DNA of 64,000 nucleotides from an uncultured Bacilli bacterium (GTDB lineage Bacteria > Bacillota_I > Bacilli_A > RF39 > UBA660). Below the pieces are notes generated by a model. It was given only the letters and a program-made list of their open reading frames with translations, had not been told where the DNA came from and searched no databases. This document shows positions 12,026 through 64,000 of this stretch, piece after piece (the stretch's first letter is position 1; each line of letters starts with the position of its first letter). The position numbers and the translations under genes are program-made. The DNA lies in assembly GCA_944358305.1 (NCBI GenBank), contig CALVQK010000005.1, positions 16,385 to 80,384 on the forward strand, in the 5' to 3' direction.

Positions 12026-12376
12026 TTGGTGGAATTTATGAAGAAGTATACACCTTTAAATATATATAATTTCTATAAAAGAGATTATGCTAAGTACTTG
12101 TTGCTGGTTAAGAAAAAAGATAAACTTATAACTTATAATACTGACGCTAAAATAGTATCTTATCTTTTTAAAATATATTATTTTGAAGAACTTAGTTTAG
12201 ATCAAAATTTGTTAACAGAGTTATTAGAACTTAAAGAAATACATCATTTTAATATTGCTGTAGTCGTCTCCTCTAAAATAAGAGAATATTATTGTTATAA
12301 AAATAGTGATTATTTGAAACTTAAAAATAATAGTAAAAGATATGTTAAAGAATTAGAGGTGATTTCTAATGGATAA
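12026..12376 (+). CDS. Hypothetical 116-aa protein, translationally coupled to avd (stop overlaps the avd start). Possible DGR accessory gene.
   Basis: Overlapping ORFs 12026..12376 / 12369..12728 / 12709..13824 suggest one operon. Confidence 0.35.
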   Translation: MVEFMKKYTPLNIYNFYKRDYAKYLLLVKKKDKLITYNTDAKIVSYLFKIYYFEELSLDQNLLTELLELKEIHHFNIAVVVSSKIREYYCYKNSDYLKLKNNSKRYVKELEVISNG

Positions 12377-12728
12377 GAATGACTCTTTTAAAATTATGAA
12401 GAATACAAAATTACTTGTTTTTGATGTAGTAGAATTTTCTAAGAATTTTCCTAAAGGAGAAGCGGTGTTAAAGAAAAATCTACAGGAAGAGTTATTTAAT
12501 CTTGTTAAATTATTAAATTCATATATTGTTAATAAAGGAAGTGCAAGAATTAAAGAAAAACATGTTAAAGACTTTATTGTTAGTCTTTCGATGGTAGATT
12601 TTTATTTTGAGTATTTATACTTAAATAAAATTATTAGTTTTAAAAAATATAAAGCTTTGGTTGATGATGTTATTACAATTAGAAAGCTTGCTTATGGAGT
12701 ATTAAAAAATGAAAAAGAGTTATCTTAA
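12369..12728 (+). CDS. avd: Accessory variability determinant (Avd)-like protein (four-helix bundle, 23S rRNA IVS protein family).
   Basis: 119 aa, basic. FSKNFPKGE resembles the KFPKxE(R/K) motif of Avd/IVS proteins. Immediately upstream of and overlapping the DGR RT gene. Confidence 0.6.
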   Translation: MDKNDSFKIMKNTKLLVFDVVEFSKNFPKGEAVLKKNLQEELFNLVKLLNSYIVNKGSARIKEKHVKDFIVSLSMVDFYFEYLYLNKIISFKKYKALVDDVITIRKLAYGVLKNEKELS

Positions 12729-13824
12729 ATATGATGTTTTAGTTGATTATGAAAAAGTATTATCTAGTTATAAAGATGTAGTTAGGAATACAGAACACAA
12801 AGAGAAATTGTTTAAATACAATTTGTTTTTGTCTAGTAATTTAATAGAAATATATAATGATTTAAAGAATAAAAAATATCATCATGGTAAATATAATATA
12901 TTCTTAATTAAAGATCCTAAATATCGGGTTATTATGAGTGAAAACTTAAATGATAAGATAGTTAATCAAATGGTTAGTGAACATATTTTAAAGCCAGTTT
13001 TAGAGCCTAGACTTATAGATAGTAATACTGCTACTAGAAAAGATATGGGAAGTAAACATGCCTTTAATTTATGCAAGAAGTATATTATGAAATTAAAAAG
13101 AGAAAATAAAGATATTTATGTTCTTAAGTTTGATATAAAAAAATATTTCTATAATATAGATCATGATATTTTGTTATCTAAGTTAGAGAAGATCTTTGTA
13201 GATAAGGATATTATGGCTTTATTAAAAGATATTATATATAGTTCTAATCTTGCTTATGTTAATAGGGAAATCGATACAATTATAAATAGAGAATTAAAGA
13301 AAGATTTATCTAGTTATCATAAAAGTGAACTTTTAAAAGTACCTAGATATCAATATCATAAAGGACTTGCTATTGGTAATGTTACAAGCCAAATACTTGC
13401 TATCTTTTATTTGAATAGAATAGATCATTTTATTAAAGAAAATTTAGGTTGTAAGTATTATATTCGTTATATGGATGATGGTATTATTTTTGATTATGAT
13501 AAAGAGAAATTAAAACGTATTAAGAGTGCTATTGAGAAGGAACTTTTAAAAGAAAAATTGGAACTTAATAAAAAAACAAATATTTATAAACTTAGTAATG
13601 GTTTTACTTTTATAGGATATAGATTTATTTTAAGAAATAATAAACTTGTTATTAGAATCAATAATAAAGTTAAGACTAGAATTAAGAGAAAGATTAAATA
13701 TTTGAGTGTTTATGATAAAGAGAAACTTATTAGAGTTAAAGCAAGTTACTATGGTTATATGAAAAGAGCATCTACTAAATTCTTACAGCATAAACTTGCT
13801 ATTAAAGATAAGCAAAGTTATTGA
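12709..13824 (+). CDS. DGR-type reverse transcriptase.
   Basis: RT motifs FDIKKYFYNIDHD, the DGR-specific GLAIGNVTSQ (I/LGxxxSQ in place of QGxxxSP), and YIRYMDDGIIF (YxDD). 371 aa with no maturase or endonuclease domains. Confidence 0.85.
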   Translation: MKKSYLKYDVLVDYEKVLSSYKDVVRNTEHKEKLFKYNLFLSSNLIEIYNDLKNKKYHHGKYNIFLIKDPKYRVIMSENLNDKIVNQMVSEHILKPVLEPRLIDSNTATRKDMGSKHAFNLCKKYIMKLKRENKDIYVLKFDIKKYFYNIDHDILLSKLEKIFVDKDIMALLKDIIYSSNLAYVNREIDTIINRELKKDLSSYHKSELLKVPRYQYHKGLAIGNVTSQILAIFYLNRIDHFIKENLGCKYYIRYMDDGIIFDYDKEKLKRIKSAIEKELLKEKLELNKKTNIYKLSNGFTFIGYRFILRNNKLVIRINNKVKTRIKRKIKYLSVYDKEKLIRVKASYYGYMKRASTKFLQHKLAIKDKQSY

Positions 13825-14456: not shown

Positions 14457-14480
14457 ATGGATACATAAGAGATTATGTTT

Positions 14481-14584
14481 AAAAAAGCTGGTGATTCCAA
14501 CCATAATAGGAACTTAAAAAAGCGGTGATTCCGACCATAACAGGAACTTAAAAAAGAAACTAGAGATGCAAAACTCTAGTTTTT
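14481..14584 (+). ncRNA. Type III antitoxin-like RNA. Two tandem direct repeats (35 nt and 34 nt, aaaaaagc(t)ggtgattccRaccataaYaggaactt) plus a partial third, followed by an intrinsic terminator.
   Basis: Units at 14481..14515 and 14516..14549. Terminator hairpin aactagag/ctctagtt with a T-run at 14558..14584, directly upstream of a ToxN-like ORF. Confidence 0.55.
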
Positions 14585-14646
14585 ATAAATTTCCTATTGC
14601 GAACATTTGTTCTTTTATGTATAATAATTAACTAAGTAAAGGAGGA

Positions 14647-15024
14647 ATGTTTGTGAAACAAGAATTACGTTTAGTTAAAATTGATTCTAATTATTGTGAT
14701 TATTTAAGAAAATATGATTCAAAAGTTCCATATAATTTTGATAGAAAAAGAAATAGACCTTTTGTAGGTGTATTGTTTGAAGTTAATGGGTGTAAATATT
14801 TTGCACCACTTGCTAGTCCTAAGACTAAATATTTAAAAATGCATAATAGTATTGATTTCTTTAAGTTGAAAAACGGAGAACTTGGAGCGATTAATTTTAA
14901 TAATATGATTCCTGTAACATTAAATAATGTTATTATGTTAGAACTTTTGGAAGATAATAAAACAAAAGAGGAAAGAATATATATAAAGATGTTAAAAGAG
15001 CAATTATATTTTGATTGTAAATAA
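14647..15024 (+). CDS. ToxN/AbiQ-family endoribonuclease toxin (type III TA / abortive infection). Likely start is GTG at 14653.
   Basis: KVPYNFDRKRNRPFVGVLFEVNGCKYFAPLASPK closely parallels the ToxN N-terminal core (KVP...F(I/V)G(I/V)..E..G.KY.APL.SPK). AGGAGG lies 9 nt before the GTG. Confidence 0.6.
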   Translation: MFVKQELRLVKIDSNYCDYLRKYDSKVPYNFDRKRNRPFVGVLFEVNGCKYFAPLASPKTKYLKMHNSIDFFKLKNGELGAINFNNMIPVTLNNVIMLELLEDNKTKEERIYIKMLKEQLYFDCK

Positions 15025-35381: not shown

Positions 35382-37214
35382 ATGAAAATGGGTAACCTAA
35401 GTAGTAAAGGAGTTACAGATATGACAAAGAAAAAATATATAGTAATATCAGTAGTAATAATATTAATAAGTATAATAGCATTAATAGGTGCAAGTTATGC
35501 CTTATTAACAATGACTATAGAGGGAGATAAAGAAATAACTCTAACAGCAGGAATACTAAAAGTTGATTTTAGTGAAGGTGATAATATAAGTATAGAAAAT
35601 AGCGCTCCTATGTCTGATAAAGAAGGTCTACAAACAACTCCTTATACTTTTACAGTAACAAATACAGGAAATATAAATGCTTATTACCATGTATCATTAG
35701 AAGAAGATAGTAATAATACATTAAGTAATTCAAATTTAAAGATGAAAATAACAGGAAATAATGGCTATGATAGTGGAGTAATAAGAGTAAGTGATTATGG
35801 GATAGGTTCTTTTGAAATAATAGGAGAAGATGTATTAGAGCCAAGCGATACAGTAACATATACTTTGTATATGTGGTTAGATGAGGATGCAGGGAATGAG
35901 GCACAAGGAACAATATATCAAAGTAAGATAGTAGTAACAAGTTATGATAGAGAACAGAATAGTCCAAATGCTCCAATGTTAGATGAAGGAATGATACCAG
36001 TAACATATGATGGAAGTAATTGGGTAAAAGCAGATAGAACAAATATAAATAATAGTTGGTATAACTATAATGATTTAATGTGGGCAAATGCTGTAACAGT
36101 ATCAGAATCAACAAGAAGCACATATAAGAGTGCAGCAGTAGGAACAGTAGTAAATATGGATGATATAGAGACAATGTGGGTATGGATACCAAGATATTCA
36201 TATACAATAGGAAGTGAAGATGGGACTAATTACTATGGAAAACAAGGGACATTTCTAGATACAACACCTACTCAGGCTTTACCAGGAGAAATAGATGTAA
36301 AGTTTGTTAGTGAGAATACAAAAGATAGAGGAAGTGCAAAATACATAGTAAGTGAAGGAATAAGTGATGATAGTTGGTATACGCCAGATGCTTTTACATT
36401 TGGAGATGAAGAGTTAAGAGGAATCTGGGTAGGAAAATTTGAGACAAGTAGCAGTAATCCAAATGAAGAAGATGGCGGAGGGAATACTACCGAGTTAGAT
36501 CCAATGATTAAACCAAATGTCACAAGTTGGAGAGGAATAAATGTAAGTAATGCCTTTAATGTGAGTTTAAAGATGAATAATAATGGAAATAGATATGGAA
36601 TAGAGAGTACAACCGATACCCATATGATGAAGAATAGTGAATGGGCACTAGTGGCATATCTTACACAATCAAAATATGGAAAATTAGGGAATAGTAATTT
36701 TACAGGTGCAAATAAAGAAATATATGTTAATAAGTCGAACGATTTGATAACAGGTTGTAGTTATGGAGCACCTAGTAATAGTAATACAGATTATGGATGT
36801 CAATATCAATATAATGTAGAGATAAATGGAACAGGAGCCTCAACCACAGGAAATATCTATGGAATATATGATATGAGCGGTGGTGATTGGGAATATGTTA
36901 TGGCAAATTATAATGATGTAGTAGGAGAAAGTGGATTTACTTCGATGCCTGATGCAAAATATTATGATAAATATACAAGTAATAATATAAATACAGCGTG
37001 TGATGGAAATATATGTTTATCACATAATTTGTTAGAAACAAAAAAATGGTATAATGATTTTCACACTTTAGTTTCTGAGGAGTATCCTTGGTTAGCAAAT
37101 GGGGGTAGTTGTATTCAGGATAATACAAATGCTGGAATATATGCTATTTCTAGAACTCTTAATAAAGGTGCTGCAAGAGATTCAACTTTCCGTTTAGTAG
37201 CAACAATAAGGTAG
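35382..37214 (+). CDS. Paralog of the DGR target family: SipW-cognate/TasA-like N-terminus with an FGE-sulfatase-like C-type-lectin-fold C-terminus. Likely start ATG 35421.
   Basis: LIGASYALLTMTIEGDKEITLTAGILKVDF matches the TasA-like N-region. C-terminus YGIYDMSGGDWEYV and NGGSC...RDSTFRLVATIR parallel the FGE-domain GNVWEW / RGGSW...GFR signatures. Confidence 0.6.
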   Translation: MKMGNLSSKGVTDMTKKKYIVISVVIILISIIALIGASYALLTMTIEGDKEITLTAGILKVDFSEGDNISIENSAPMSDKEGLQTTPYTFTVTNTGNINAYYHVSLEEDSNNTLSNSNLKMKITGNNGYDSGVIRVSDYGIGSFEIIGEDVLEPSDTVTYTLYMWLDEDAGNEAQGTIYQSKIVVTSYDREQNSPNAPMLDEGMIPVTYDGSNWVKADRTNINNSWYNYNDLMWANAVTVSESTRSTYKSAAVGTVVNMDDIETMWVWIPRYSYTIGSEDGTNYYGKQGTFLDTTPTQALPGEIDVKFVSENTKDRGSAKYIVSEGISDDSWYTPDAFTFGDEELRGIWVGKFETSSSNPNEEDGGGNTTELDPMIKPNVTSWRGINVSNAFNVSLKMNNNGNRYGIESTTDTHMMKNSEWALVAYLTQSKYGKLGNSNFTGANKEIYVNKSNDLITGCSYGAPSNSNTDYGCQYQYNVEINGTGASTTGNIYGIYDMSGGDWEYVMANYNDVVGESGFTSMPDAKYYDKYTSNNINTACDGNICLSHNLLETKKWYNDFHTLVSEEYPWLANGGSCIQDNTNAGIYAISRTLNKGAARDSTFRLVATIR

Positions 37215-39077
37215 GTGAATGTAATGAAAGAAGCAATAAAGAAAAATAAGAAATATATAATAATAGGGCTTGTAATAATAATTCTTCTTTTAATAGGAAT
37301 AGCATTCGCTTACCTAACAACAACACTACAAGGAGATAAAGAATATTTAGTAAGAGCAGGAACATTAGACCTAGTATTAGATGAAGGAAATGAACTTGCT
37401 TTAGAGAAACAAATACCACTTTCAGATAATGAAGGAATGAATCTTAATGGTTTTAGCTTTAGTATAGTAAATAATGGAAAGATAGATACAGATTATACAA
37501 TTTATTTAGATGATATGGAATTAAGTGAAGGAGAAAGTAGAATACCAGACTCTAGTATAAGATATAGTCTAACAAAAAATGATGAAACATTTATGACTAG
37601 GAATATGACAACCATGGGAAGTAATCCAAATAGAAGAGTAGACTTTGGAACAATCGCACCTGATGAAACTATTAACTACACCTTAAAGATCTGGATAGAC
37701 TATGATGCAACAACTGAAGAAGCAAGTGGTAAAGTATTTAAAGGGAAGTTAAGAGTAGTAGCAACTCAATCAGTAGGAGAAGCAGCAGGTACAGTATTAC
37801 TTGATAATATTCCAGAAGAAAACCAATATGATGATGGAACAGATACTTTTATTACAGGAGAAGATCCAGATAATTACATTTGGTATTCTGGTAAACTATG
37901 GAGAGCAGTATCAGTTAATAATGAAGCAAAGACAGTAAAATTAGTAACTCATGGGAATATAAGTTTTATGTCATATGATGACGATAGTACTGCTTTTGAA
38001 GGTAGTTATATGGAAGAGTGGTTAAATGATACAACAGTAGATGGTTTTCTTGGTAATTTAAGAAATTATGAAAACTTTATAGTAACCGATGCAAAGTGGG
38101 ATGCCACTGAGGATAATAGAGAATTAGGTAATATAACAAGACCTAATGGGACTACAATTGTGACAGATGCTGTAGGGTTACTTAACATATATGAATACCA
38201 GATGAGTTACAGAGGAGCTGATTATAGTAATGGATATTTAAATAATGGACTTGACTGGTGGATTATTACTCCTTATAGCTCAGTATATCCTAGATGCATT
38301 GCTAGTGGAGGAAATAGTAGTAATGTCTCTAATTTGAATTATAGATATGGAATTCGTCCAACAATAAATTTAAAAAGTGATGTAAAGATAGTATCAGGGA
38401 ATGGAACAGAAGACGATCCATATAGATTAATGAGCGATAGTGATGAAGACTTATCAGGTGTTAAGTTAAATACAAGATACAGTGGAGAATATATTCGTTT
38501 TGGAACAGGAGAAAATTATTTGTATAGAATAGTAAGTCATGAAACAAGAGGCTTAACAAAAATAACCAGTGCTGAACCATTAAAAGAAAATGGTGTATTT
38601 AAAACTATTTCTTTTGGCAATGATACCTATTATTCTAGTACTAATACTATTGGAACCTTTTTAAATGGTGAATATTTATCTTCTTATATCGATAGTAATC
38701 ATATTAATATGATAGAAGATAGTAGTACTTGGTATTTGGGAGAAGTGCGCAGTAGAGCGAGTTATAAACTAGCCAAATATGCTAATTATGATATGGCAAA
38801 CTATGCTAAGAGCACTAATGCAAAAATCGGTTTATTGAGATTTGGAGAATTAATGTCAGGACAATTCAATGTTTTTAGTAGTAATACTGATTATTGGTTA
38901 TTAACTCCATTTGAAAATGGACTCAATTATGTTAATGTGTATTCTGGGAATACAACAAATCCCAATCCGTATAATAATTATTTTGGTATTAAACCATCTC
39001 TAAACCTAAAATCAAATGTCATCATAATATCTGGCATAGGTACGAAAGAAGATCCATTTATTATTACTTTATCATAA
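37215..39077 (+). CDS. Paralog of the DGR target family: SipW-cognate/TasA-like N-terminus plus two DUF1566-like modules each ending in (I/V)RPxINLKSxV..SGxGTxxDP.
   Basis: LIGIAFAYLTTTLQGDKEYLVRAGTLDLVLDEGNELAL resembles the TasA signal/N-domain. WWIITPYSS..YGIRPTINLKSDVKIVSGNGTEDDPY and YWLLTPFENG..FGIKPSLNLKSNVIIISGIGTKEDPF repeats. Confidence 0.6.
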   Translation: MNVMKEAIKKNKKYIIIGLVIIILLLIGIAFAYLTTTLQGDKEYLVRAGTLDLVLDEGNELALEKQIPLSDNEGMNLNGFSFSIVNNGKIDTDYTIYLDDMELSEGESRIPDSSIRYSLTKNDETFMTRNMTTMGSNPNRRVDFGTIAPDETINYTLKIWIDYDATTEEASGKVFKGKLRVVATQSVGEAAGTVLLDNIPEENQYDDGTDTFITGEDPDNYIWYSGKLWRAVSVNNEAKTVKLVTHGNISFMSYDDDSTAFEGSYMEEWLNDTTVDGFLGNLRNYENFIVTDAKWDATEDNRELGNITRPNGTTIVTDAVGLLNIYEYQMSYRGADYSNGYLNNGLDWWIITPYSSVYPRCIASGGNSSNVSNLNYRYGIRPTINLKSDVKIVSGNGTEDDPYRLMSDSDEDLSGVKLNTRYSGEYIRFGTGENYLYRIVSHETRGLTKITSAEPLKENGVFKTISFGNDTYYSSTNTIGTFLNGEYLSSYIDSNHINMIEDSSTWYLGEVRSRASYKLAKYANYDMANYAKSTNAKIGLLRFGELMSGQFNVFSSNTDYWLLTPFENGLNYVNVYSGNTTNPNPYNNYFGIKPSLNLKSNVIIISGIGTKEDPFIITLS

Positions 39078-52620: not shown

Positions 52621-53214
52621 ATGAAAAAGAAAGAAGAAATTTTAAATATTGCTAGTAAAAATGGTGGTTATATCACAACCAAAGAGTTGACTAAATATAA
52701 TATAAATAGTCGTTTTTTGACATCTTTAGTAAAAGAAAAAAAACTAAGTAGAGCATCAAGAGGTTACTATATTTTACCAAATGTTTTTCCTGATGATTTC
52801 TATATTATTCTTTCAAAATGCAAGAAAGCTGTTTTTTCAGATGCTACTGCACTTTATTTTCATAATCTTTCTGATAGAATACCTTTAGTATATGATATTA
52901 CGTTGCCTTATGGTTATGGTAATTGTTATAAAGATATGTCTAATGTTTCTCTTCATTATGTAAAAAATGCGAATATTGATTTAGGTATGATAGAAATAGA
53001 GTCTCCTTTTGAAATGAAAATTAAAACTTATGATATAGAAAGAACTGTTTGTGATATTATTAAAAATAAAAATAAAATGGATATTGAAGTTTTTACTAAA
53101 GCTTTAAAAGAATATTCAAGATTAAAAAATAAAGATCTTAATAAATTAATGAAATATGCTAAAAGATTAAATGTAGAGAAGAAAGTAAGAGAATATATGG
53201 AGGTGTTGTTGTAA
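52621..53214 (+). CDS. AbiEi-family antitoxin/transcriptional regulator (type IV TA).
   Basis: N-terminal wHTH ILNIASKNGGYITTKELTKYNINSRFLTSLVKEKKLSRASRGYYIL typical of the AbiEi N-domain. Confidence 0.6.
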   Translation: MKKKEEILNIASKNGGYITTKELTKYNINSRFLTSLVKEKKLSRASRGYYILPNVFPDDFYIILSKCKKAVFSDATALYFHNLSDRIPLVYDITLPYGYGNCYKDMSNVSLHYVKNANIDLGMIEIESPFEMKIKTYDIERTVCDIIKNKNKMDIEVFTKALKEYSRLKNKDLNKLMKYAKRLNVEKKVREYMEVLL

Positions 53215-53291
53215 TTAATCAAGACAAATTAAAAAGTTTAGTTTCTAAAAAGACGTTAGGAGGTACATATAAATCACAAATATACTTTCAA

Positions 53292-54065
53292 TTGTTTTAT
53301 TTTGAACGACTATTAGAAAGAATTTCTAAAAGTAAATATAAAAATTATATTATATTAAAAGGTGGATTAGTTTTAACTTCAATTATTGGTAGTGATGATA
53401 GAACTACTAAAGATATGGATGCAACGGTAAAAGGTATTCCTCTTTCTGAAAATATAATTAAAGAAATATTTAAGGAAATATTTAGCATTGATTTGGATGA
53501 TGGTGTTACTTTTGAACTTATTAGTATTAAAGATATTAGGCTAGAAGATAAGTATGGTGGTTTTAGATTAAATATTTTATCAAAATTAGGTAATAATAAA
53601 ACATATATTACAGTTGAACTAACAACTGGTGATGAAATAACTCCTAGAGAGATAAAATTTAGTTATAATTCGATTTTTGAAGATAAAAAAATAACTATTA
53701 TGGCATATAATATAGAAACTATACTAGCAGAAAAATTTCACTCTATTGTTTTTAGAGGTAGTTTGAATACAAAGTTGAAAGATTTTTATGATGTTTATAT
53801 GTTATTTAATTTTAAAGAAGATATTATAGATAAAAAATTATTGGTAAAAGCAATCGAGAACACTTTTAAAAAGAGAGATACTTTAATAGATATAGATGAA
53901 TTTGTTAATCTTATAGACGATTTATATAATAATGATTCTCTTAAAAAGTTATGGAGTGAATATCAAAATAAAAATACATATGCCAAAGGTATAAGTTTTG
54001 AAGATACAATAGATTCTGTTAAAATAATAGTTAATATACTAGAAGAAACATTAGTTACTGTTTAA
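53292..54065 (+). CDS. AbiEii/AbiGii-family nucleotidyltransferase toxin.
   Basis: ILKGGLVLTSIIGSDDRTTKDMDATV (KGG..L......R.S.D(I/M)D) NTase signature. Paired with the upstream abiEi. Start uncertain (TTG). Confidence 0.6.
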   Translation: MFYFERLLERISKSKYKNYIILKGGLVLTSIIGSDDRTTKDMDATVKGIPLSENIIKEIFKEIFSIDLDDGVTFELISIKDIRLEDKYGGFRLNILSKLGNNKTYITVELTTGDEITPREIKFSYNSIFEDKKITIMAYNIETILAEKFHSIVFRGSLNTKLKDFYDVYMLFNFKEDIIDKKLLVKAIENTFKKRDTLIDIDEFVNLIDDLYNNDSLKKLWSEYQNKNTYAKGISFEDTIDSVKIIVNILEETLVTV

Positions 54066-54101
54066 AAAGTTTTGATAAAATTAGAAAGGGTTTTGAACTA
54101 T

Positions 54102-54557
54102 GAAAAAAGTTAGGAATGCTGTAAGAGCATTTGTAGTTGATGGTAATAAAGTTTTATGCATACAATATAAAGAAGAAAACATAGGGTATATTGATATTCC
54201 AGGAGGAAAAATAGAAAGGGTGAAACAGGTGTAGAAGCAGCAATTAGGGAAGTTAAAGAAGAAACTGGAATAGAAGTTAGTAATTTTAAAGAAGTAGGTA
54301 ATGTCATTATTGAATATCCGGATAGAATTTATAATATGGAAGTGTTTGTTACAAATAACTATATGGGGAGTGTTAGAAATAATGAGGAAAATGATGCTTT
54401 CTTTATTGATATAGAAGATTTACTAAAAGAAAAGAAGAGGTATGCTATTACATACTTGTTAGATACTGAGTTTGAAGATTATTTTAATAATAGAAAAATT
54501 AATGTTAAATTTAATGTTGATAGTAATCATAAAGTTATTAATTATGATAAGATATGA
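54102..54557 (+). pseudogene. MutT-like NUDIX hydrolase disrupted by a -1 frameshift in an A-run near 54215..54222.
   Basis: Frame 1 gives MKKVRNAVRAFVVDGNKVLCIQ...IPGGKIE then a stop. Shifting by one base restores GETGVEAAIREVKEETGIEV (Nudix box) and continues into ORF 54336..54557. Confidence 0.6.
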
Positions 54558-54618
54558 AATCTAATCAGCTTCAATAATAAATAATGTTTTAAAACATAAA
54601 CTTACTACTGGAAAGGTA

Positions 54619-56535
54619 GTGAGGCATATGTTTACAAGAGGAATAGATAAGAGAATGAAAATTATTCTTTTAATATTTAGTAGTATTTTATTAGTAATAG
54701 TCTTAAGAGTATTTTATGTTCAAGTAGTAGATTATAAAAAACTATCAAATCTTGCTAGTGACCTTTGGAGTAGGAATTTACCTATTGAAGCTTCTCGTGG
54801 AAGAATACTTGATAGAAATGGAGTAATTTTGGCGGATAATATTACAACTACATCTTTAGTCTTAATTCCTAATCAGATAAAGAATAAAAAAAAGGTTACA
54901 GAAAAACTTGCAGAAATTTTAGGAGTTAGTTTTGATGAGATGAAAGAACATGTTTATAAAGAGACATCTATTGAAAGAGTTCATCCAGAGGGAAGAAGAT
55001 TATCTTATGAAGTAGCAGATAAAATAGAAGCCTTAAACTTTGATGGAGTTTATTTAGTTAAAGAGTCTAAAAGATATTATCCATATGAAGAGATGTTATC
55101 TCACGTTTTAGGTTATGTCGGAATAGATAATCAAGGCTTATCTGGAATAGAGTTACAGTATGATGATTATTTAACTGGTGAAAATGGAGCAATTAAGTAT
55201 TTTAGTGATGCAAAGGGTAATAAATTAGAGCTTACAGATTTATATATTGAACCTCAGGATGGCATGGATTTGCAACTTACTATTGATATAAATATTCAAA
55301 AGTCAATTGAAAGGGAACTTGATAATGTTGTAGACATGTTTAATCCGGATATGGCTCTTGCTGTTGTAATGGATCCTAATACAGGCGAGATATTAGCGAT
55401 GAGTTCTAGACCTAATTATGATCCTAATAACTATCAAGATTATACAACAGAAGAGCTATCACGTAATTTACCTATATGGGCAAGTTATGAGCCTGGTTCT
55501 ACCCAGAAGATTGTTACAACAGCGGCATCAGTAGAAGAAGGGGTAATTGATTTATTTAAAGATGAATTTACAGATACAGGATCTGTTCAGGTGGATACAG
55601 CAAGAATTAAATGTTGGAAAGCAGGAGGACATGGTCATCAGACATTCCTTCAAGTCTTACAAAACAGTTGTAACCCTGGTTTTGTGAGGATGGGACAATT
55701 ACTTGGAAAGACGCGATTATTTCATTATTTAGATTTATTTGGTTTTGGTTCTAAGACGGGGATAGATCTTAATGGTGAAGGGGAAGGTATAATATTTCCA
55801 CTGGACCAAGTTGGTAATATAGAACTTGCTACTACAGCTTTTGGGCAAGGTATTAGTGTTACACCTATTCAACAAGTAAGAGCTATTTCAGCAGTTATTA
55901 ATGGTGGTGTTTTATTAAAGCCTTATGTTTTGAAAAACATTTTAGAGCCAGAGACCGGTAATGTTATGGAGCATAATAGTAAAACGGAGATTAGAAGAGT
56001 AATAAGTGAAGAAACTAGTGAAATTATGAGATATGCTTTAGAGACTGTAGTAGCACTTGGTGGTGGTAAAGCTGCTTATATTGATGGTTATAGAATAGGT
56101 GGTAAGACAGGTACGGCGCAAAAGGCTGTTAATGGTAGTTACCTTGCTAATAATTATATAATGTCTTTTGTTGGTATTGTGCCATCTAATGATCCTGAAG
56201 CTGTTCTTTATATTGCTATAGATAATCCAAAAGATACAGCATTGTTATCAAGTTATACCACAACTCCTATTGCAAGAAGAATACTTCTAGATATAATTGA
56301 TGCTTTAGGAATAGAAAAGCAAGAAGGTGGAGTAGAAAAAGACTATGAATGGAGTGATAAAGTTTATTATGAGGTTGCTGATGTAGTAGGTAAAACTCCA
56401 GATGAAGCTAAAGAGTTGCTTGAACATTTTTCTATAGAATACTCTGGTAGTGGAGAGAAAATAATAAGTCAATCACCTGAAGCTGGGATGCGTCTTGAAG
56501 ATGGAAGTACTGTTAAATTAATGCTAGGTAATTAG
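54619..56535 (+). CDS. Class B penicillin-binding protein (FtsI/SpoVD-like) with a C-terminal PASTA domain.
   Basis: Dimerisation domain. Transpeptidase motifs STQK (SxxK), SCN, KTGTA. PASTA VADVVGKTPDEAKELL. Confidence 0.85.
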   Translation: MRHMFTRGIDKRMKIILLIFSSILLVIVLRVFYVQVVDYKKLSNLASDLWSRNLPIEASRGRILDRNGVILADNITTTSLVLIPNQIKNKKKVTEKLAEILGVSFDEMKEHVYKETSIERVHPEGRRLSYEVADKIEALNFDGVYLVKESKRYYPYEEMLSHVLGYVGIDNQGLSGIELQYDDYLTGENGAIKYFSDAKGNKLELTDLYIEPQDGMDLQLTIDINIQKSIERELDNVVDMFNPDMALAVVMDPNTGEILAMSSRPNYDPNNYQDYTTEELSRNLPIWASYEPGSTQKIVTTAASVEEGVIDLFKDEFTDTGSVQVDTARIKCWKAGGHGHQTFLQVLQNSCNPGFVRMGQLLGKTRLFHYLDLFGFGSKTGIDLNGEGEGIIFPLDQVGNIELATTAFGQGISVTPIQQVRAISAVINGGVLLKPYVLKNILEPETGNVMEHNSKTEIRRVISEETSEIMRYALETVVALGGGKAAYIDGYRIGGKTGTAQKAVNGSYLANNYIMSFVGIVPSNDPEAVLYIAIDNPKDTALLSSYTTTPIARRILLDIIDALGIEKQEGGVEKDYEWSDKVYYEVADVVGKTPDEAKELLEHFSIEYSGSGEKIISQSPEAGMRLEDGSTVKLMLGN

Positions 56536-56654
56536 TATAAATCTTGAATTTAGTCATAAAATTAAATGACAAGAGAAAGTCAAATAATAAAATACATATA
56601 GAATAACAAAAATACTTATGCTATAATACTTAGAGAAACGAGAGGCGATAAGTC

Positions 56655-57635
56655 ATGTTATTACTTACAAAAGCAGTATTTGCAATTATGATTGGATTTT
56701 TATTTAGTGTAGTTTTAGGCCTTGTTCTTTTACCTCTTTTAAGAAAATTGAAAGTAGGACAAAGGATAAGTAGTTATGTAGGATATTCGCATCGTAAAAA
56801 AGAAGGAACTCCTACGATGGGTGGCTTAATCTTTATTATTCCTACAGTTGTTATTACATTAGGATTATTGATTACGGGGAAAATATCTTATTCTGATAAT
56901 TTAGCAATAGTGTTATTAGTATTTTTAGGTTTTGCCATTATTGGATTTTTAGATGATTTCTTATCACTTAAAAAGCATAACAACGAAGGGCTTACTACTT
57001 ATCAAAAATTATTAGGGCAAGTTATAATATCGACAATATTTTTCTATATTTATATGAAAAATGGAGGTCAGACATCTTTTGTGGTTGGGACTCTTGGTAT
57101 TGATATTGAACTTACTTGGCTATATGGATTATTTATATTATTTATTTTGATTGGTGCTTCTAATGCTGTTAATTTGACAGATGGTTTAGATGGACTTGCA
57201 GGGAGTTTATCTGCTGTTGCTTTCATTGCTTTTGCTCTTATTTCCTTTGTAGTTGGTTTTGAAGATATTGGTATATTTTGTTTAGTGTTAGTTGGTTCTT
57301 TGATTGGTTTCTTAGTTTATAATACTCATCCTGCGAAAATATTTATGGGAGATACTGGTTCTCTTGCTCTTGGAGGTGTTATGGGTGCCGTTGCTATACT
57401 TACTCATAGAGAACTTACTTTACTTGTAGTAGCAGGAGTCTTTGTAATAGAAACATTATCAGTTATTTTACAAGTGTTTTGGTTAAGGTTTTTCCATAAA
57501 AAGTTATTCTTAATGACGCCTTTACATCATCATTTTGAAAAACTTGGTTGGCAAGAGACAGATATTGTTAAATTATTTGTAGTCTTTGGATTACTACTTG
57601 CGATGAGTGGCATTATTTTTGGAGTATGGTTATAG
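56655..57635 (+). CDS. mraY: Phospho-N-acetylmuramoyl-pentapeptide transferase.
   Basis: KEGTPTMGG, NAVNLTDGLDGLA, MGDTGSLALGG motifs. Confidence 0.9.
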   Translation: MLLLTKAVFAIMIGFLFSVVLGLVLLPLLRKLKVGQRISSYVGYSHRKKEGTPTMGGLIFIIPTVVITLGLLITGKISYSDNLAIVLLVFLGFAIIGFLDDFLSLKKHNNEGLTTYQKLLGQVIISTIFFYIYMKNGGQTSFVVGTLGIDIELTWLYGLFILFILIGASNAVNLTDGLDGLAGSLSAVAFIAFALISFVVGFEDIGIFCLVLVGSLIGFLVYNTHPAKIFMGDTGSLALGGVMGAVAILTHRELTLLVVAGVFVIETLSVILQVFWLRFFHKKLFLMTPLHHHFEKLGWQETDIVKLFVVFGLLLAMSGIIFGVWL

Positions 57636-57649
57636 AAAAGAGTGATTAG

Positions 57650-58744
57650 ATGAAGAAAAAAGGTTTATCTTTGCCTTTATTAATCACAGTAATACTTTTA
57701 GTAACATTTGGACTTATAATGATATATTCCGCTTCAAGTATTTGGGCCGAATATAAGTTTCATGATAGTTTTCACTATGTGAAACAACAAGCATTATTTA
57801 CAGTAATAGGATTTATAATAATGTATATAGTTAGTAAGATAGATTATAATATCTATTTTAAGAAGGCAAATATCATCTTAGGTATTTGCTTTTTATTATT
57901 AATTTTAGTTTTAATACCTGGTATAGGTAGTATTAGAAATGGTAGTAGGAGTTGGTTTGGAATAGGGCCATTTGGAGTACAGCCTAGCGAGTTTATAAAA
58001 CTGGCATTAATAATATTTACTAGTAAATACTTAGTTAATAGTAATAAGTTTTTAAAGAGTTATAAGAAAGGTGTAATTCCAATACTTGGAATTGCCTGCT
58101 TTGCTTTTGGTCTTATCATGTTACAACCTGATTTAGGAACAGGTTTAGTTTTAATGGTTTCAATTATTGCCTTACTTTTTATCGCTGGGGTTAATATGAA
58201 GTTTTTCTATATTTTGGGAGTAATAGGAATAGTTGGAGTTATAATACTTATCGCTATCGCTCCATATCGTATGGATAGAATAACATCGTTTTTAGATCCA
58301 TGGAGTGATCCTTTGGGAACAGGTTTTCAAATAATTCAGTCTTTATATGCCATAGGTCCAGGAGGACTGCTTGGTACAGGTTTTTTAAATTCAAGACAAA
58401 AACATTTTTATTTGCCAGAACCTCAAACTGACTTTATCTTTTCAATAATTTGTGAAGAGTTCGGTGTAGTAGGTGCGATATTTATTGCTTTACTTTTCTT
58501 CTTACTTTTATATTTTGGTGTTAAGATTGCTTTAAAATCAAACGATTTATTTGCCAAGTATTTAGCTTTTGGTCTTATTTTTCAAATGATTTTTCAAGCC
58601 TTAATGAACTTAGCTGTGGTGATTGGTCTAATACCTGTGACTGGAGTAACCCTACCATTTTTATCTTATGGAGGAAGCTCTTTATTAATAAGTTTATTAA
58701 GTATTGGAATTCTTCTTAATATAGCGAGAAAAAATAATCAGTAA
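57650..58744 (+). CDS. SEDS-family protein FtsW/SpoVE.
   Basis: QPSEFIKL, MLQPDLGT, GLIPVTGVTLPFLSYGGSS motifs. Lies downstream of PBP-mraY. Confidence 0.85.
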   Translation: MKKKGLSLPLLITVILLVTFGLIMIYSASSIWAEYKFHDSFHYVKQQALFTVIGFIIMYIVSKIDYNIYFKKANIILGICFLLLILVLIPGIGSIRNGSRSWFGIGPFGVQPSEFIKLALIIFTSKYLVNSNKFLKSYKKGVIPILGIACFAFGLIMLQPDLGTGLVLMVSIIALLFIAGVNMKFFYILGVIGIVGVIILIAIAPYRMDRITSFLDPWSDPLGTGFQIIQSLYAIGPGGLLGTGFLNSRQKHFYLPEPQTDFIFSIICEEFGVVGAIFIALLFFLLLYFGVKIALKSNDLFAKYLAFGLIFQMIFQALMNLAVVIGLIPVTGVTLPFLSYGGSSLLISLLSIGILLNIARKNNQ

Positions 58745-58883
58745 TGGTATATTATATTAATAGAGATACTTATAAATTTGAGGTTTCAGTCTGAAACCTC
58801 AAATTTAATAATAGTTATTATTAAAAAAGTCTCTAAGGTTTCAATTTGAAACCTTGAAAGAAAATATATAGTTGTAGGAGGTT

Positions 58884-59261
58884 ATGCTTATAAACGATTT
58901 AATAGAAAAAGAAGATATTAAAATTGAAAACATGATATATGAAATTAGAGGCAAGCAGGTAATGCTTGATAATGATTTGGCGAGACTTTATAAATGCAAA
59001 AATGGAACTAAGACTATTAATCAAGCGGTTAAAAGACATATTAATAGATTCCCAGAAAGATATATGTTTCAATTGAGTGAAAGAGAATATGATAATTTGC
59101 GGTCCCAAGTTGGGACCACAAAAGAAAATAATAAGTCTAGAACTCTACCTTATGTATTTACAGAACAGGGTGTCGTCATGCTTGCTACTATACTTAGAAC
59201 ACCTATTGCAGAAGAAGTGAGTATAAGAATAATGGATGCTTTTGTAGCTATGAGAAAATAA
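58884..59261 (+). pseudogene. ORF6N-domain (KilA-N-like DNA-binding) protein, N-terminal half of a split gene. An in-frame TAA at 59259..59261 replaces the Tyr codon present in the intact paralog.
   Basis: EIRGKQVMLDNDLARLYKCKNGT...FPERYMFQLSEREY...PYVFTEQGVVMLATIL is the ORF6N signature. The downstream frame continues in phase into 59307..59747. Confidence 0.55.
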
Positions 59262-59306
59262 ATATCAACTAATCTAATTGAGCAAAAGTATATAAATGAT
59301 TTAGTT

Positions 59307-59747
59307 TTGAAGGATTCAAAAAGAATAGATGTGTTAGAAAATGCATTTTCTAGTTTTAACGATAAAAATAATCATATTTTTTTTGAAGGACAGATTTATG
59401 ATGCTTATTCTTTAATGATAAAGATATTTGAAAAAGCTTTAAGCAGTATCATTATAATAGATAATTATATAGATAAGAATATATTAGATATATTATCTAA
59501 AACTAATAGAAAAGTTACTTTTATTACTAATAAGTATAACAACGTAGATTATGAAAAGTATAAAGAACAATATAATAATGTAACCTTAGTAGTTAATAAC
59601 TCATTTCATGATAGATTTATTATTTTAGATAAGAAAATTTTATACCACTTTGGAGCAAGTTTTAAAGACTTAGGAAAGAAATGTTTTGCTATCACTAAGA
59701 TAGAAAGCAAAGAACTTTTAGATAGTTTGTTAGATAAGTTAGAATAA
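59307..59747 (+). pseudogene. C-terminal half of the split ORF6N paralog. Possibly independently translated from a TTG start.
   Basis: About 85% identical to residues 147..288 of ORF 59815..60681. Confidence 0.5.
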
Positions 59748-59814
59748 CAACTTTTATTAGAAATATGTTAATGTTCAAGGTTTCAACTTGAAACCTTAAA
59801 AGAAAAATATGTAA

Positions 59815-60681
59815 TTGAAGGAGGTTATGCTTATAAACGATTTAATAAATAAAGAAGATATTAAAATTGAAAACATGATTTATGAAATTAGAGGAAAACA
59901 AGTGATGCTTGATAGTGATTTGGCTAAACTATATCATGTTGAAACAAAGAGGATTAATGAGGCTGTTAAGAATAATATGGAAAAATTTCCTGAAAGATTT
60001 TCTTGGAAGTTAACAGATGAAGAAAGTAAAATGTTTTTGGTCGAAATTTTCGACCAAAAACATATGGAAACTCGTGGAGGTAGATATAGATGCCCTAGAG
60101 TTTTTACTGAACAAGGTGTTGCGATGCTTGCCACAATACTGAAATCTAAAATCGCTATACAAGTAAGTATCAGAATAATGGATACTTTTGTAGCAATGAG
60201 AAAATATATTTCAAATGATTTAATGGACTATAGTAAGATGTTAATTAATCATGAAAATAGACTTTCTTTATTAGAGAATACCTTCGATAGCTTTAAAGAT
60301 AAAAATAATCATATCTTTTTTGAAGGACAGATTTATGATGCTTATTCTTTAATGATAAAGATATTTGATAAAGCTGAAAGTGGTATCATTATAATAGATA
60401 ATTATATAGATAAGAATATATTAGATATATTATCTAAAACTAATAGAAAAGTTATTCTTATTACTAATGAGTATAAAATACAAGATTATGAGAAATATAA
60501 AGAACAGTATGATAATGTTAACTTAGTAGTTAATAACTCATTTCATGATAGATTTATCATTTTAGATAAGAAAATTTTATATCACTCTGGAGCAAGTTTT
60601 AAAGATTTAGGTAAGAAGTGTTTTGCAATTACTAAAATAGAAAGTAAAGAGCTTTTAGACGGTTTGTTAAACAAATTATAG
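59815..60681 (+). CDS. Intact ORF6N-domain protein (288 aa) with an uncharacterised C-terminal domain.
   Basis: EIRGKQVMLDSDLAKLYHVETKRINEAVKNNMEKFPERFSWKL...VFTEQGVAMLATILKS. C-terminal half matches 59307..59747. Confidence 0.6.
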   Translation: MKEVMLINDLINKEDIKIENMIYEIRGKQVMLDSDLAKLYHVETKRINEAVKNNMEKFPERFSWKLTDEESKMFLVEIFDQKHMETRGGRYRCPRVFTEQGVAMLATILKSKIAIQVSIRIMDTFVAMRKYISNDLMDYSKMLINHENRLSLLENTFDSFKDKNNHIFFEGQIYDAYSLMIKIFDKAESGIIIIDNYIDKNILDILSKTNRKVILITNEYKIQDYEKYKEQYDNVNLVVNNSFHDRFIILDKKILYHSGASFKDLGKKCFAITKIESKELLDGLLNKL

Positions 60682-60857
60682 TTGTAATCGGTTTAATACC
60701 TATTATATAAGTTACATTACCTACTAAGTGCTCTAATCTTCCAAACACTTGGTTACATGAGTTTTATCTAATCTAAAGAAAGGTCTGGTATTATAAAATA
60801 CTATTTGTTTTTTGATAATTATTATGATAATCTATAGACTGTGAAAAGAGTGATTAT

Positions 60858-61316
60858 ATGATTAAATATTATTATGCAAGAATAACAGATAGTAATTTAT
60901 ATATGGATGATATTAATCTTTTAGAGTATCTTAGTAAGTATTTTCCTGCTGTTTATACATATTATCAAGATATGATTAAGAAAAGTGAAATAGTTAATTT
61001 TAATAGATACAAAGAATCTAGAATATCTTTTAATAGAAAAGTTATGGAAGAGGGCTTATCGCCTTATTTGTTATTAAAAAAGGAAAATGGAGAGGTAAGA
61101 GAAATTAATACTAATAGTCTTTTAGTTTTATCTAACCTTAAAAAACCTAAACTAAAAAGATTAACTATTGAAGAAGTAGAAACTTTATATACTGATGATT
61201 ATAGAACAAGAACTAATAAATATGTATACTTTCCTTCAGTTTTGGATGATAACCCTATTTTTGATTTGGATTGCGTAGAAGAGGAACAATTTAAAATAAT
61301 AAAGAAAACAAACTAA
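60858..61316 (+). CDS. Hypothetical protein (152 aa).
   Basis: ORF only. Confidence 0.3.
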   Translation: MIKYYYARITDSNLYMDDINLLEYLSKYFPAVYTYYQDMIKKSEIVNFNRYKESRISFNRKVMEEGLSPYLLLKKENGEVREINTNSLLVLSNLKKPKLKRLTIEEVETLYTDDYRTRTNKYVYFPSVLDDNPIFDLDCVEEEQFKIIKKTN

Positions 61317-61792
61317 GCTTTTTTACTTAGTCTGTTTTTAAATATAATTTTAAATATAAATCTAACAATTGGTCCAGCATAAAATAACTGAAAGCACATA
61401 GCCATAGGAAAACTTAAAACCATAGATTGTAACCAACTAGATATAAAAATATCAAGACTGGGTTTATTTATAAATATAGTTGCTATTAAACTCATAATAG
61501 GACACATAAAAGTAACTATTACAATAGAGATTCCATAACTTATAAGAATACTAGGTGTTTTCTTAGGATCAAACACTTTAAAAGCTAGTTTGTGGGCAAT
61601 TTTCCCTATTAAGAAAAATTCTAAAATAATAGCAACAATCCACATAAAAGGTAATTCTTTAAAAGCTTCTAAAAATATAAGGTTATTTAAGCCGCCAGTA
61701 TGAATAGAAATATTATAGCAAATCATAACATATACCATTAAAAAAGCCATTATTAAAGTATAGATAAAGTCTTGTAATTTAGTTTGTGGCAT
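61313..61792 (-). CDS. Hypothetical membrane protein (4 TM).
   Basis: Hydrophobic profile. RBS ggaggataattATG on the minus strand. Confidence 0.4.
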   Translation of the reverse strand: MPQTKLQDFIYTLIMAFLMVYVMICYNISIHTGGLNNLIFLEAFKELPFMWIVAIILEFFLIGKIAHKLAFKVFDPKKTPSILISYGISIVIVTFMCPIMSLIATIFINKPSLDIFISSWLQSMVLSFPMAMCFQLFYAGPIVRFIFKIIFKNRLSKKA

Positions 61793-62000
61793 AATTATCC
61801 TCCTTTCCTACAATATAAAAACAGCATCATTTTTCAATGTGTTGTTCGTTAGCATCTTAGAGATGTTTCGTTTCCAATTTAACCATTAAATCTGTTTCCT
61901 TAGTGATTTTAGCACAGTTTAGAAAAATATGTAAGAAAAAATTTATTTTTGTAGTAATTTTTATAAATTTATAGTATATTTTAGGTAAGGAGGAAGTATT

Positions 62001-62429
62001 ATGACACTTTTTTGGTTAGTATTATTTGTTATTTTATCATTATTTGAACTTGCTACTGTAAATTTGGTATCTATTTGGTTTGCAATAGGAGCAATTATCA
62101 CAACATTTGTATCTTTAGTAACTGATAATGTAATGATACATTTAGCAGTATTCACTATTGCGTCAATTCTTTTATTACTTTTAACAAAACCATTTGTTAA
62201 GAAAATAAAAAAAAGAGAAGTTGTTCCTACTAACTTAGATAGAGTTATTGGTAAAGTTGGAGTGGTTACAGAAAAGGTTCTACAGGATGGAATTGGTGAA
62301 GTTAAAGTTCTAGGTAAGAAGTGGAGTGCATATAGTGATAAAGAAATAAAAGAAAATAGTAAAGTAAAGGTATTATCTATTAATGGAGTAAAACTTAAAG
62401 TAGAAGAGATTAAGGAGAGTGATAAATAA
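62001..62429 (+). CDS. NfeD-family membrane protein (OB-fold C-terminus), partner of the SPFH protein.
   Basis: Two N-terminal TMs, then a beta-rich C-terminus GKVGVVTEKVLQDGIGEVKVLGKKWSA. Stop overlaps the downstream SPFH start. Confidence 0.65.
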   Translation: MTLFWLVLFVILSLFELATVNLVSIWFAIGAIITTFVSLVTDNVMIHLAVFTIASILLLLLTKPFVKKIKKREVVPTNLDRVIGKVGVVTEKVLQDGIGEVKVLGKKWSAYSDKEIKENSKVKVLSINGVKLKVEEIKESDK

Positions 62430-63313
62430 TGTTTTGGGTTATATTAATAGTAATTATTGTTATTGTAATATTAGGAGTAAAAGTAATTCCACAATCACAA
62501 GCGAAAGTAATAGAACGTCTTGGGACTTATTATAAGACGCTTGGAACAGGTCCTCATTATGTAGTACCATTTATTGATAGAGTGGCATCTACTGTTTCTT
62601 TAAAGGAAATAGTTAAAGATTTTGCACCACAACCTGTTATTACTAAAGATAATGTTACGATGCAAATTGATACAGTTGTTTATTTTCAAATAACTGATCC
62701 TAAACTTTATACTTATGGAGTAGAAAATCCTATTAATGCCATTGAAAATTTAACAGCAACAACACTACGTAATATTATTGGTGAGTTAGAACTTGATCAA
62801 ACCTTAACATCAAGAGATATTATTAATTCAAAGATGAGATCAATTTTAGATGAAGCGACTGATCCTTGGGGTATTAAAGTAAATAGAGTTGAAGTTAAAA
62901 ATATTATTCCACCACGTGATATTCAAGATGCTATGGAAAAACAAATGCGTGCTGAACGTGAAAGACGTGAGAAGATATTGCAAGCAGAAGGAGAGAAAAA
63001 AGCTGCTGTATTAATCGCTGAAGGTGAGAAAGAAAGTACAGTTTTAAGAGCAGAGGCTCAGAAGGAAGCAGCAATTAAGAAGGCAGAAGGAGAAGCTGAA
63101 GCAATTATTAAAATTAAAAATGCTGAAGCTGAAGGTATTAAATTACTTAAAGAGGCTAAAGCAGATGCTTCAGTTTTAAAACTAAAGAGTTATGATGCAA
63201 TGGTAAAAGTTGCTAATGGACAATCTACTAAGATAATAGTTCCTAGTGAATTACAAAGTTTAGTAACAGCAGGAACGGTATTAAGTGAAACATTTAAAGA
63301 AGGAAAGAAATAA
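62429..63313 (+). CDS. SPFH/band-7 (stomatin/flotillin-like) protein.
   Basis: N-terminal TM. SPFH core VIERLGTYYKTLGTGPHYVVPFID..TKDNVTMQIDTVVYFQITDP. C-terminal coiled-coil (Ala/Glu-rich). Confidence 0.8.
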   Translation: MFWVILIVIIVIVILGVKVIPQSQAKVIERLGTYYKTLGTGPHYVVPFIDRVASTVSLKEIVKDFAPQPVITKDNVTMQIDTVVYFQITDPKLYTYGVENPINAIENLTATTLRNIIGELELDQTLTSRDIINSKMRSILDEATDPWGIKVNRVEVKNIIPPRDIQDAMEKQMRAERERREKILQAEGEKKAAVLIAEGEKESTVLRAEAQKEAAIKKAEGEAEAIIKIKNAEAEGIKLLKEAKADASVLKLKSYDAMVKVANGQSTKIIVPSELQSLVTAGTVLSETFKEGKK

Positions 63314-63503
63314 TTTGCATTTCTTTCTTTTATTAATATGAATTCATAATGATACTAATTAGTAGATATTTGTAAAGTAATAGTGATTATAATAATAAGC
63401 ACTATTTTTTTATTTGAATAATTGGACTCCATGTGTTAGAATTGTAATAGATAAAGTATAAGAATAAAAGATAAAGGTAAGCTAAATAGTAAGGAGAATA
63501 TTT

Positions 63504-64000
63504 ATGAAGAAAAAAGAGAATATAGTAATAATAGTACTATTAGTGTTAATGTTAGTTGCTATAATAGGTGTAAGTTATGCAGCGTTTAACTTTAGTCAGC
63601 AAGGTAATACACCAAATAAAATAACAACAGGATCAATAACAATGACATATACAGAAAGTGATAATAAAATAAGTTTGAATGGGGCATTACCTACAACAGA
63701 TAAGACAGGAATGGTAAGATTAACAGCAGGAGAATATTTTGATTTTAATGTTTCTAGTCAAATAACAGGTGATGTAAATATCAACTATGAGATAAGTGCA
63801 AAAGAAGTAGGAGATGGGACGATAGATGGTTCTAATATCAAACTTTATTTAACAAAGTTAAATGATGATGGAACAGAGGAAGCCCTAATGGTACCAGAAG
63901 TGTATAATGTAGAGGCTAATGCTAATGATTATACAGGAAGACCATCAGGAGAGATGAGTTTATATACAAGTAGCATGAACTCAAGTGAATCTAATAATTA
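63504..64000 (+). CDS. 3'-truncated paralog of the DGR target gene (window edge). The N-terminal 165 aa are about 95% identical to the 7288..9006 protein.
   Basis: MKKKENIVIIVLLVLMLVAIIGVSYAAFNFSQQGNTPNKITTGSITMTYTESDNK... Nucleotide identity to 7288..7780 is high throughout. Confidence 0.7.
   Translation, partial: MKKKENIVIIVLLVLMLVAIIGVSYAAFNFSQQGNTPNKITTGSITMTYTESDNKISLNGALPTTDKTGMVRLTAGEYFDFNVSSQITGDVNINYEISAKEVGDGTIDGSNIKLYLTKLNDDGTEEALMVPEVYNVEANANDYTGRPSGEMSLYTSSMNSSESNN

Follow-up and report, generated by a model that had tools for sequence, protein, structure and literature searches.

The window (the whole 64,000-nt stretch of DNA that was analysed, from an uncultured Bacilli bacterium assigned to UBA660) carries a DGR, the parts of which all lie on the forward (+) strand. 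Target gene 1 (7288..9006; 572 aa), which is actively diversified, bears VR1 at its 3' end (8834..8932, including the IMH at 8917..8932), and is followed by the TR (9119..9217), with 35 adenines, mostly in AAT and AAC codons, and a 16-nt IMH-like end (9202..9217). The 16-nt IMH, GACGCCGTGCGTCCAG, occurs in exactly two copies in the window (at 8917 and 9202), against a chance expectation of 0. Further downstream, a gene at 12709..13824 encodes a DGR reverse transcriptase (RT) of 371 aa with IGNVTSQ and YMDD motifs and a match to RVT_1 (E = 7e-20); the RT protein was identical on 12 contigs. A DGR-type RT, a TR and an adenine-mutated VR nearby were thus all found, and the DGR to which the original prediction referred proved to be real.

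The RT gene is preceded by a probable Avd accessory gene (12369..12728, + strand, 119 aa), which weakly matches NF033474 DivGenRetAVD (E = 2.5e-4, 21 bits, below the cutoff of 80). Its position and synteny are kept on two contigs from related genomes (L016 and L029), and the ortholog on a third (L039) has a weak match to the Pfam family bAvd. A conserved accessory ORF (12026..12376, + strand, 116 aa) lies directly before it. Between the TR on one side and the accessory genes, avd and RT on the other sits a tandemly duplicated unit of ~1 kb (9516..11881, + strand; repeat families D3–D6), with copies 81–95% identical. It contains two Rpn-family-like genes (9712..10530 and 10664..11545, + strand; TIGR01784 E = 4e-10 and 2.5e-8, neither reaching the curated cutoff) and an HTH_Rpn_C mini-ORF; we take Rpn to be a family of recombination-promoting nucleases or putative transposases. 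This insert is absent from the target-TR-accessory ORF-avd-RT layout of L016, L029 and L039. A homolog of the insert, 86% identical, was seen 3' of a TR-less target on another contig (L027). No Rfam families were found in window positions 8800..12800.

Several features make the element comparable to the DGR of Bordetella phage BPP-1 (mtd VR/TR/avd/brt): the adjacent target carries its VR 3'-terminally, mutagenesis from the TR is adenine-specific, the VR closes with a GC-rich IMH, the RT shows YMDD and [I/L]GxxxSQ motifs, and there is a small, putatively Avd-like accessory gene. Unlike the phage-borne BPP-1 system, the element described here is chromosomal and lies among housekeeping genes (yqeH-like GTPase, frr, pheST), with priA and a sigma factor gene also in its flanks; its TR is separated from avd and RT by the 2.4-kb Rpn-like insertion, and its target domain is DUF6273-related, not demonstrably Mtd-like. 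Otherwise, the locus is a conventional chromosomal DGR of an uncultured gut Bacilli lineage, diversifying a putatively secreted DUF6273-type protein.

Other features of the window were recorded alongside. Just 3' of the DGR and frr, a region (14479..15024) that resembles a ToxIN-type (type III) toxin-antitoxin system comprises a ToxN_toxin-family gene (14647..15024) and, immediately before it, 2.3 copies of a tandemly repeated 34-nt unit (93% matches). An AbiEi/AbiEii toxin-antitoxin pair lies at 52621..54065, and ORF6N-domain genes are tandemly duplicated at 58832..60681 (~940-nt spacing, 77–88% identity).

A paralog of target gene 1 at the window end

The top-ranked direct repeat of the window (D1) pairs target gene 1 with a second gene that starts 56,216 nt further on, at 63504, and of which the window holds the first 497 nt (63504..64000, + strand), encoding an N-terminal membrane or signal segment and a conserved N-terminal domain. 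Gapless alignment of 63505..64000 with 7289..7784 gave 34 mismatches over 496 nt, i.e. 93.1% nucleotide identity, so that the close match on which the original prediction was built is real, while its figure of ~95% was somewhat too high. At the protein level, 157 of the 165 visible residues are identical (95%) and eight differ. Similarity begins at the start codon, and the sequences upstream of the two genes are unrelated.

The end of the paralog was obtained from metagenome contigs, found by using the neighbouring Band7 protein (window 62429..63313) as a query. One of these (L001) differs from window positions 54001..64000 by a single mismatch in 10,000 nt (99.99%) and runs past the window end; adding 52,428 to an L001 position gives the window position. 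The continuation past 64000 is therefore inferred from near-identical contigs, and its coordinates are given as window-equivalents. Read in this way, the full paralog gene encodes 560 aa (L001 11076..12758, window-equivalent 63504..65186, + strand) and is situated 56 kb from the DGR, between nfeD/Band7 genes on one side and genes for an ABC ATPase and a 1013-aa FtsX-type permease on the other. The protein cluster that is 100% identical to the window's target 1 (P0014) and the one representing the L001/L002 paralog protein (P0121) both list a longest contig of 86,366 nt, which is consistent with both genes lying on the source contig of the window. On L002 (sample BRZ_PD), a large serine recombinase element (1812..3473) sits inside a PBP (transpeptidase/PASTA) gene that is intact in the window (54619..56535).

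Over their full length, target 1 and the paralog share 79.7% nucleotide identity, which is distributed very unevenly: blocks of 100 nt are 87–97% identical in the first 600 nt and 47–83% identical after that (47–63% in the C-terminal third), before rising to 92% in the last block. The same identity profile is found in each pair of paralogs, with the 5' 600 nt as the conserved block in all of them and the last ~100 nt 88–95% identical among all paralogs. Because this block profile is common to every pair, the ~500 nt visible in the window represent the conserved N-terminal module of the family. This module has probably also been homogenised by gene conversion, a reading based on two variants (P0123 and P0124) with target-1-like N-terminal residues. 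The recent duplication that had been proposed is not borne out; by its block profile, the paralog is a mosaic, ~80% identical overall, rather than a recent duplicate of target 1. Two further, highly diverged paralogs (610 and 620 aa) with an N-terminal segment in common stand in tandem at 35382..39077, the second with a mid-protein match to DUF6273 (E = 6.9e-6); a VR or IMH was found in neither.

The target/paralog protein consists of an N-terminal hydrophobic segment, a conserved β-rich domain and a C-terminal module of ~115 aa that holds the VR. A match to the SipW-type signal peptide TIGR04088 (E = 0.085) is a hint only, and one distant homolog has a camelysin/TasA-type N-terminus; the 560-aa paralog is predicted to be a secreted or surface protein. 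Direct scans of target 1 and the paralog against Pfam and NCBIfam returned no significant family. For the C-terminal module, 1,064 representative homologs reach E ≤ 1e-3; they are often located C-terminally in varied proteins and sometimes repeated, and 22 of 48 homologous segments matched Pfam DUF6273, making the module, by transitivity, a putative homolog of that family. Its motifs GLITADE, YWTMSP and VRPVINL may resemble motifs known from C-type-lectin-like DGR targets of the DUF1566 type. Modelled alone with AlphaFold2, the C-terminal domain reached a pLDDT of 68, and its top PDB matches, which were weak, were C-type-lectin-like; Foldseek searches of PDB and BFVD with this model gave no match at E ≤ 0.001. 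Profile searches of PDB returned chance matches only (arginine kinase, Fab chains), and the full-length AlphaFold2 model of the 560-aa paralog (from a 65-sequence alignment) was unusable, with a pLDDT of 43.

The TR-like segment of the paralog

As had been predicted for the then unseen 3' end, the sequence past position 64000 contains both a TR-like segment and an exact IMH. The segment, VR2 (L001 12587..12684, window-equivalent 65015..65112), aligns to TR 9119..9217 and ends in the exact IMH gacgccgtgcgtccag, matching the TR end; the 16-nt GACGCCGTGCGTCCAG is placed at L001 12669..12684 and is followed by TTATCAATGTGA, the same sequence as after VR1. Beyond these shared ends, the two repeats relate to the TR in different ways. 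Compared codon by codon, VR2 shows 15 changes at TR adenines, 12 changes at non-adenine positions and the deletion of one AAT codon, against 17–21 adenine-site and 0–1 non-adenine changes in the VR1 alleles (window, L007 and L033). Differences between VR2 and the TR are thus not confined to TR adenines, and the expected compatibility of the paralog's VR with the TR does not hold. Five of the mismatches fall in the 14-nt non-adenine block CGCCGGCTGCGTTC at the 5' end of the VR.

The non-adenine changes are far from evenly placed, with 11 of the 12 at third codon positions. Among the third positions of the VR body that end in G or C in the TR, 10 of 11 are changed in VR2 (all four AAC codons of the TR having become NNT) and 0 of 11 in the VR1 alleles, while only 1 of 14 T-ending third positions is changed in VR2. 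At a genome composition of 27.8% GC, this is the pattern expected of a coding sequence under purifying selection that would be drifting towards an AT-rich composition. Since a fixed retrohoming event would have reset the non-adenine positions to the TR sequence, their divergence argues that VR2 has long been without one.

The same third-position changes could be attributed to another template, if VR2 stemmed from a TR allele since lost, or from a second DGR, whose template had one codon fewer and AAT in place of AAC; the four NNT codons and the missing AAT codon would fit such an origin, and one related MAG does have two VR+TR cassettes (L024, L029). However, VR2 has the GTC codon and the AAT-GAC junction that are specific to the TR of this species, and lacks the GTG and AAC-AAC seen in the TRs of other species; a search for a second TR or a further IMH in the window or the 9 kb beyond found neither, and third-position C>T changes are equally expected from AT-biased drift at this GC content. 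We therefore regard a lost template as very unlikely.

The IMH of VR2 departs from the remainder of the repeat, with none of its three G/C third positions changed against the 10 of 11 in the VR body (Fisher p = 0.011). Its integrity may reflect residual selection on the site, or a site that is still used or selected as DNA. It would equally be explained if other copies had converted the 3' tail, a possibility raised by the high identity of the last ~100 nt among all paralogs.

Variable repeats in strains and related species

The two loci were compared between strains using assembled consensus sequences (at least 10 contigs from a few studies), in which low-frequency variants within populations are invisible. 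The TR is identical on L007, L010 and L033, and so is the portion of it present on L008. The window and L007 differ at 23 of 15,092 nt, all within VR1 (8848..8914), and the window and L010 at 18 of 5,055 nt, again all within VR1 (8857..8915). TR adenines account for 25 of the 26 variable VR1 columns. Seven natural variants of target 1 had seven distinct VRs, with a mean of 0.6 aa differences outside the VR and 14.1 aa inside. Conversely, the 560-aa gene differed by 1–20 nt between four contigs and by 0 in VR2, and its five protein variants (at least 10 contigs, at least two studies) showed a mean of 10.4 aa differences elsewhere and none in the VR. No 560-like cluster with another VR was present among the best 120 database matches. 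VR2 was thus the same among otherwise near-identical genomes, and groups of proteins at least 95% identical outside the VR had either a different VR in every member or one VR common to all.

The contrast between the loci holds within one species, where VR1 is unique to each sample and the TR invariant, and in one case within a single sample: BRZ_PD yielded L033 with the DGR locus, at 99.4% identity to the window, along with L002, which has the 560-aa copy, and L034, which has a third, htpG-linked copy, at a coverage of ~10–11x each. This third paralog encodes 573 aa (L034 255..1976, BRZ_PD NODE_434), lies upstream of htpG, outside the window, and carries the IMH. Its repeat, VR3 (L034 ~1800..1902), differs from the TR at 21 adenine sites and at only two non-adenine sites, both synonymous, and is invariant among the variants of the gene. 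The 573-aa protein had been considered as an allele of the Band7 locus, a placement that was rejected given its position upstream of htpG on L034; a 571-aa allele that does occupy the Band7/ABC locus (L004) has seven non-adenine differences from the TR. On a 4.5-kb contig (L005), the sequence upstream of the gene at the Band7 locus runs into the 573-aa gene and then into what lies downstream of it on the htpG side. Either the assembly is a chimera that arose where the paralogs share their conserved 5' 600 nt, or the two loci have truly recombined.

With regard to the multi-target DGR that had been proposed, only VR1 qualifies: VR2 is decayed and invariant, and VR3, although nearly A-only, is also invariant. 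At least one remote paralog here holds a fossil or dormant VR, and in a closely related strain there are two such paralogs.

A sister lineage offers a natural point of reference. On its contigs L037/L038 (~7,900..11,310 of a 1.09-Mb contig), an insertion of ~3.4 kb that encodes three tyrosine recombinases interrupts the TR after ...GAATAACAA, and avd is truncated, making this a naturally inactivated DGR. The primary target protein of this split-TR lineage is identical on seven contigs; invariance across contigs therefore tracks DGR inactivity.

The same IMH was found in related uncultured Bacilli, in 'Tenericutes' MAGs and in Candidatus Onthousia, several MAGs having two IMH-bearing genes. Where the genomic context was checked, all four hypervariable groups (window, L016, L039, L040) adjoin a TR or a DGR cassette, and all three invariant groups are remote. 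The MAG BRZ_BV bin67 was considered as a case of an active remote target and dropped, its TR looking degenerate. The IMH together with its downstream 21-mer had no match when JGI metagenome_contigs were scanned.

These comparisons bear on whether the remote paralog is, by way of its IMH, a trans target of the DGR, which would make the DGR a genuine multi-target element. The exact IMH with its conserved downstream sequence, the 15 adenine-site differences from the TR and the related MAGs with two IMH-bearing genes could all be expected of an active second target, and other DGRs have targets tens to hundreds of kb away (PMC5758913). Nevertheless, VR2 is invariant in all its variants and contigs, while VR1 differs each time, and fixed homing would erase the mostly third-position, non-adenine differences and the codon deletion that VR2 has accumulated. 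Ongoing diversification of the paralog is on this evidence highly improbable. We consider it likely that the active DGR visibly diversifies in nature only the adjacent target 1, and that VR2 of the 560-aa paralog is a relic that is no longer rewritten.

Candidate cis-elements and comparison with known systems

If VR2 is such a fossil, the C-terminal domain of the paralog would once have received, or been copied from, a TR-templated variable repeat; rewriting by the retroelement would since have ceased, even though the exact 16-nt IMH and the conserved 3' tail are kept, and VR2 would now evolve as an ordinary coding sequence under purifying selection, its G/C third positions drifting towards AT. 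The homology, the IMH, the mismatch pattern, the invariance of VR2 and the hypervariability of VR1 are direct observations, while the reason for the inactivity is what we infer, and candidate causes include the eroded 5' homology block (the five mismatches in CGCCGGCTGCGTTC), the loss of a conserved hairpin or of proximity to the TR, and selection against new variants, to which consensus assemblies would be blind.

The hairpin in question follows the stop codon of target 1 (9014..9039, + strand) and has the form GAGGCAAATGA-CTCT-TCATTTGCCTC, in which a stem of 11 bp carries a loop of 4 nt; GGGGGATTAAACTGTA comes next. A hairpin GAGGCAAATGA-CTCY-TCATTTGCCTC together with GGGGATTAAACTGTA(W)GTGA is strongly conserved across species in the interval from the target stop codon to the TR, in the region corresponding to window 9014..9055, with equivalents on L016, L019, L021-L024, L026, L030, L039 and L040. 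In related species, each target next to a TR has it behind its stop codon, whereas it is absent from remote paralogs. At the same relative place, VR2 and VR3 have a hairpin that is AT-rich, with a stem of 12 bp, a 4-nt loop and a T-run behind it, and a scan for a GC-rich terminator 3' of the paralog detected none. The conserved post-stop hairpin had no Rfam match; it could form a cruciform at the target site, act as a terminator, or make up the 5' portion of the TR/DGR RNA. Its presence is confounded with TR adjacency, and it may simply be part of the TR transcript or a terminator.

In BPP-1, homing requires a GC-rich hairpin 3' of the VR, and exchanging GC for AT pairs greatly reduces it (Guo et al. 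2011, PMC3240598); this hairpin/cruciform has a 7–10 bp stem and a 4-nt GRNA loop and lies shortly downstream of the VR. The VR1 hairpin described here differs in starting 82 nt from the VR end and in its CTCT loop, compared with a distance of 4–34 bp and a GRNA loop in BPP-1 (PMC3240598), and neither it nor the hairpins after VR2 and VR3 fit the BPP-1 consensus.

An alternative to the fossil is a dormant or conditional target, into which homing is rare or occurs under certain conditions, new variants being purged through strong selection for the fixed VR2 sequence. The conserved synonymous sites of the IMH, the intact ORF with its signature of purifying selection, and the consensus nature of the sequences compared are all compatible with such a state. 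On the other hand, the accumulated non-adenine changes show a long period without any fixed homing product, the hairpin downstream of VR2 is AT-rich with the conserved hairpin of adjacent targets missing, and the 5' homology block is eroded; we consider dormancy unlikely.

Remote and multiple DGR targets are already well documented. Wu et al. 2018 (PMC5758913) reported non-adjacent targets in 45 of 372 DGRs, assigned only where the differences were A-to-N with minor exceptions. The present case is like DGRs with remote targets, e.g. that of Treponema denticola, in that the chromosome is not a phage's and the RT is separated from IMH-bearing target paralogs by tens of kb. It is unlike them in its remote VR, which does not vary between strains and departs from the TR by 12 non-adenine differences and a deleted codon. 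The same survey includes targets with up to 11 non-A differences and indels, for which noncanonical mutagenesis was suggested as a possibility, and a target pair in ANKO01000117.1_3531_4562 of which one member shows A-to-N differences only and the second ~seven non-A differences plus an indel. The pair described here likewise has unequal mutation patterns. In contrast to the noncanonical-mutagenesis reading, the strain comparison and the third-position bias point to drift in a frozen VR, and on these two lines of evidence drift is the better explanation of the non-adenine differences in VR2.

Schillinger et al. 2012 (PMC3521204) recognise continuing diversification by a hallmark, adenine exchanges without accumulated non-A mutations, that VR2 lacks. 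As in that study, we see a paralog family with diversified and stable members; the 'stable counterpart' paralogs reported there have no VR, whereas those described here retain a VR homolog and an exact IMH. For annotation, this means that a TR-like segment with a perfect IMH is insufficient to call a DGR target, and that counting remote IMH-bearing paralogs would overestimate multi-target DGRs. Non-adenine TR-VR mismatches in surveys can arise by ordinary drift once rewriting of a VR has stopped, and third-codon-position bias together with invariance between strains tells such drift from noncanonical mutagenesis. Where one genome holds an active and a frozen VR whose IMHs are identical, the two also provide a natural comparison for cis-elements beyond the IMH that permit homing.

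Whether the pattern extends to the whole of this small-genome gut Bacilli clade, with remote IMH-bearing target copies systematically exempt from diversification, is a tentative proposal that we would rate as rather doubtful. If it were true, an exact IMH would be insufficient for retrohoming in trans in this clade, and a TR-adjacent cis feature would also be needed, e.g. the conserved hairpin with the GGGGATTAAACTGTA element, or physical or transcriptional linkage to the TR. A diversified VR duplicated or converted to a remote locus would then act as an 'archive', fixing a binding specificity that had been selected earlier, as exploration continues in the primary copy.

A further observation concerns the TR cassette itself. 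On four contigs from related genomes (L015, L020, L025 and L028), the target stop codon is directly followed by TGAGTAACGGACAG, and on L040 (6726..7150) the same sequence comes after the hairpin, the TR and a spacer, an arrangement that indicates the apparently precise loss or gain of a ~400-nt TR cassette at one locus.
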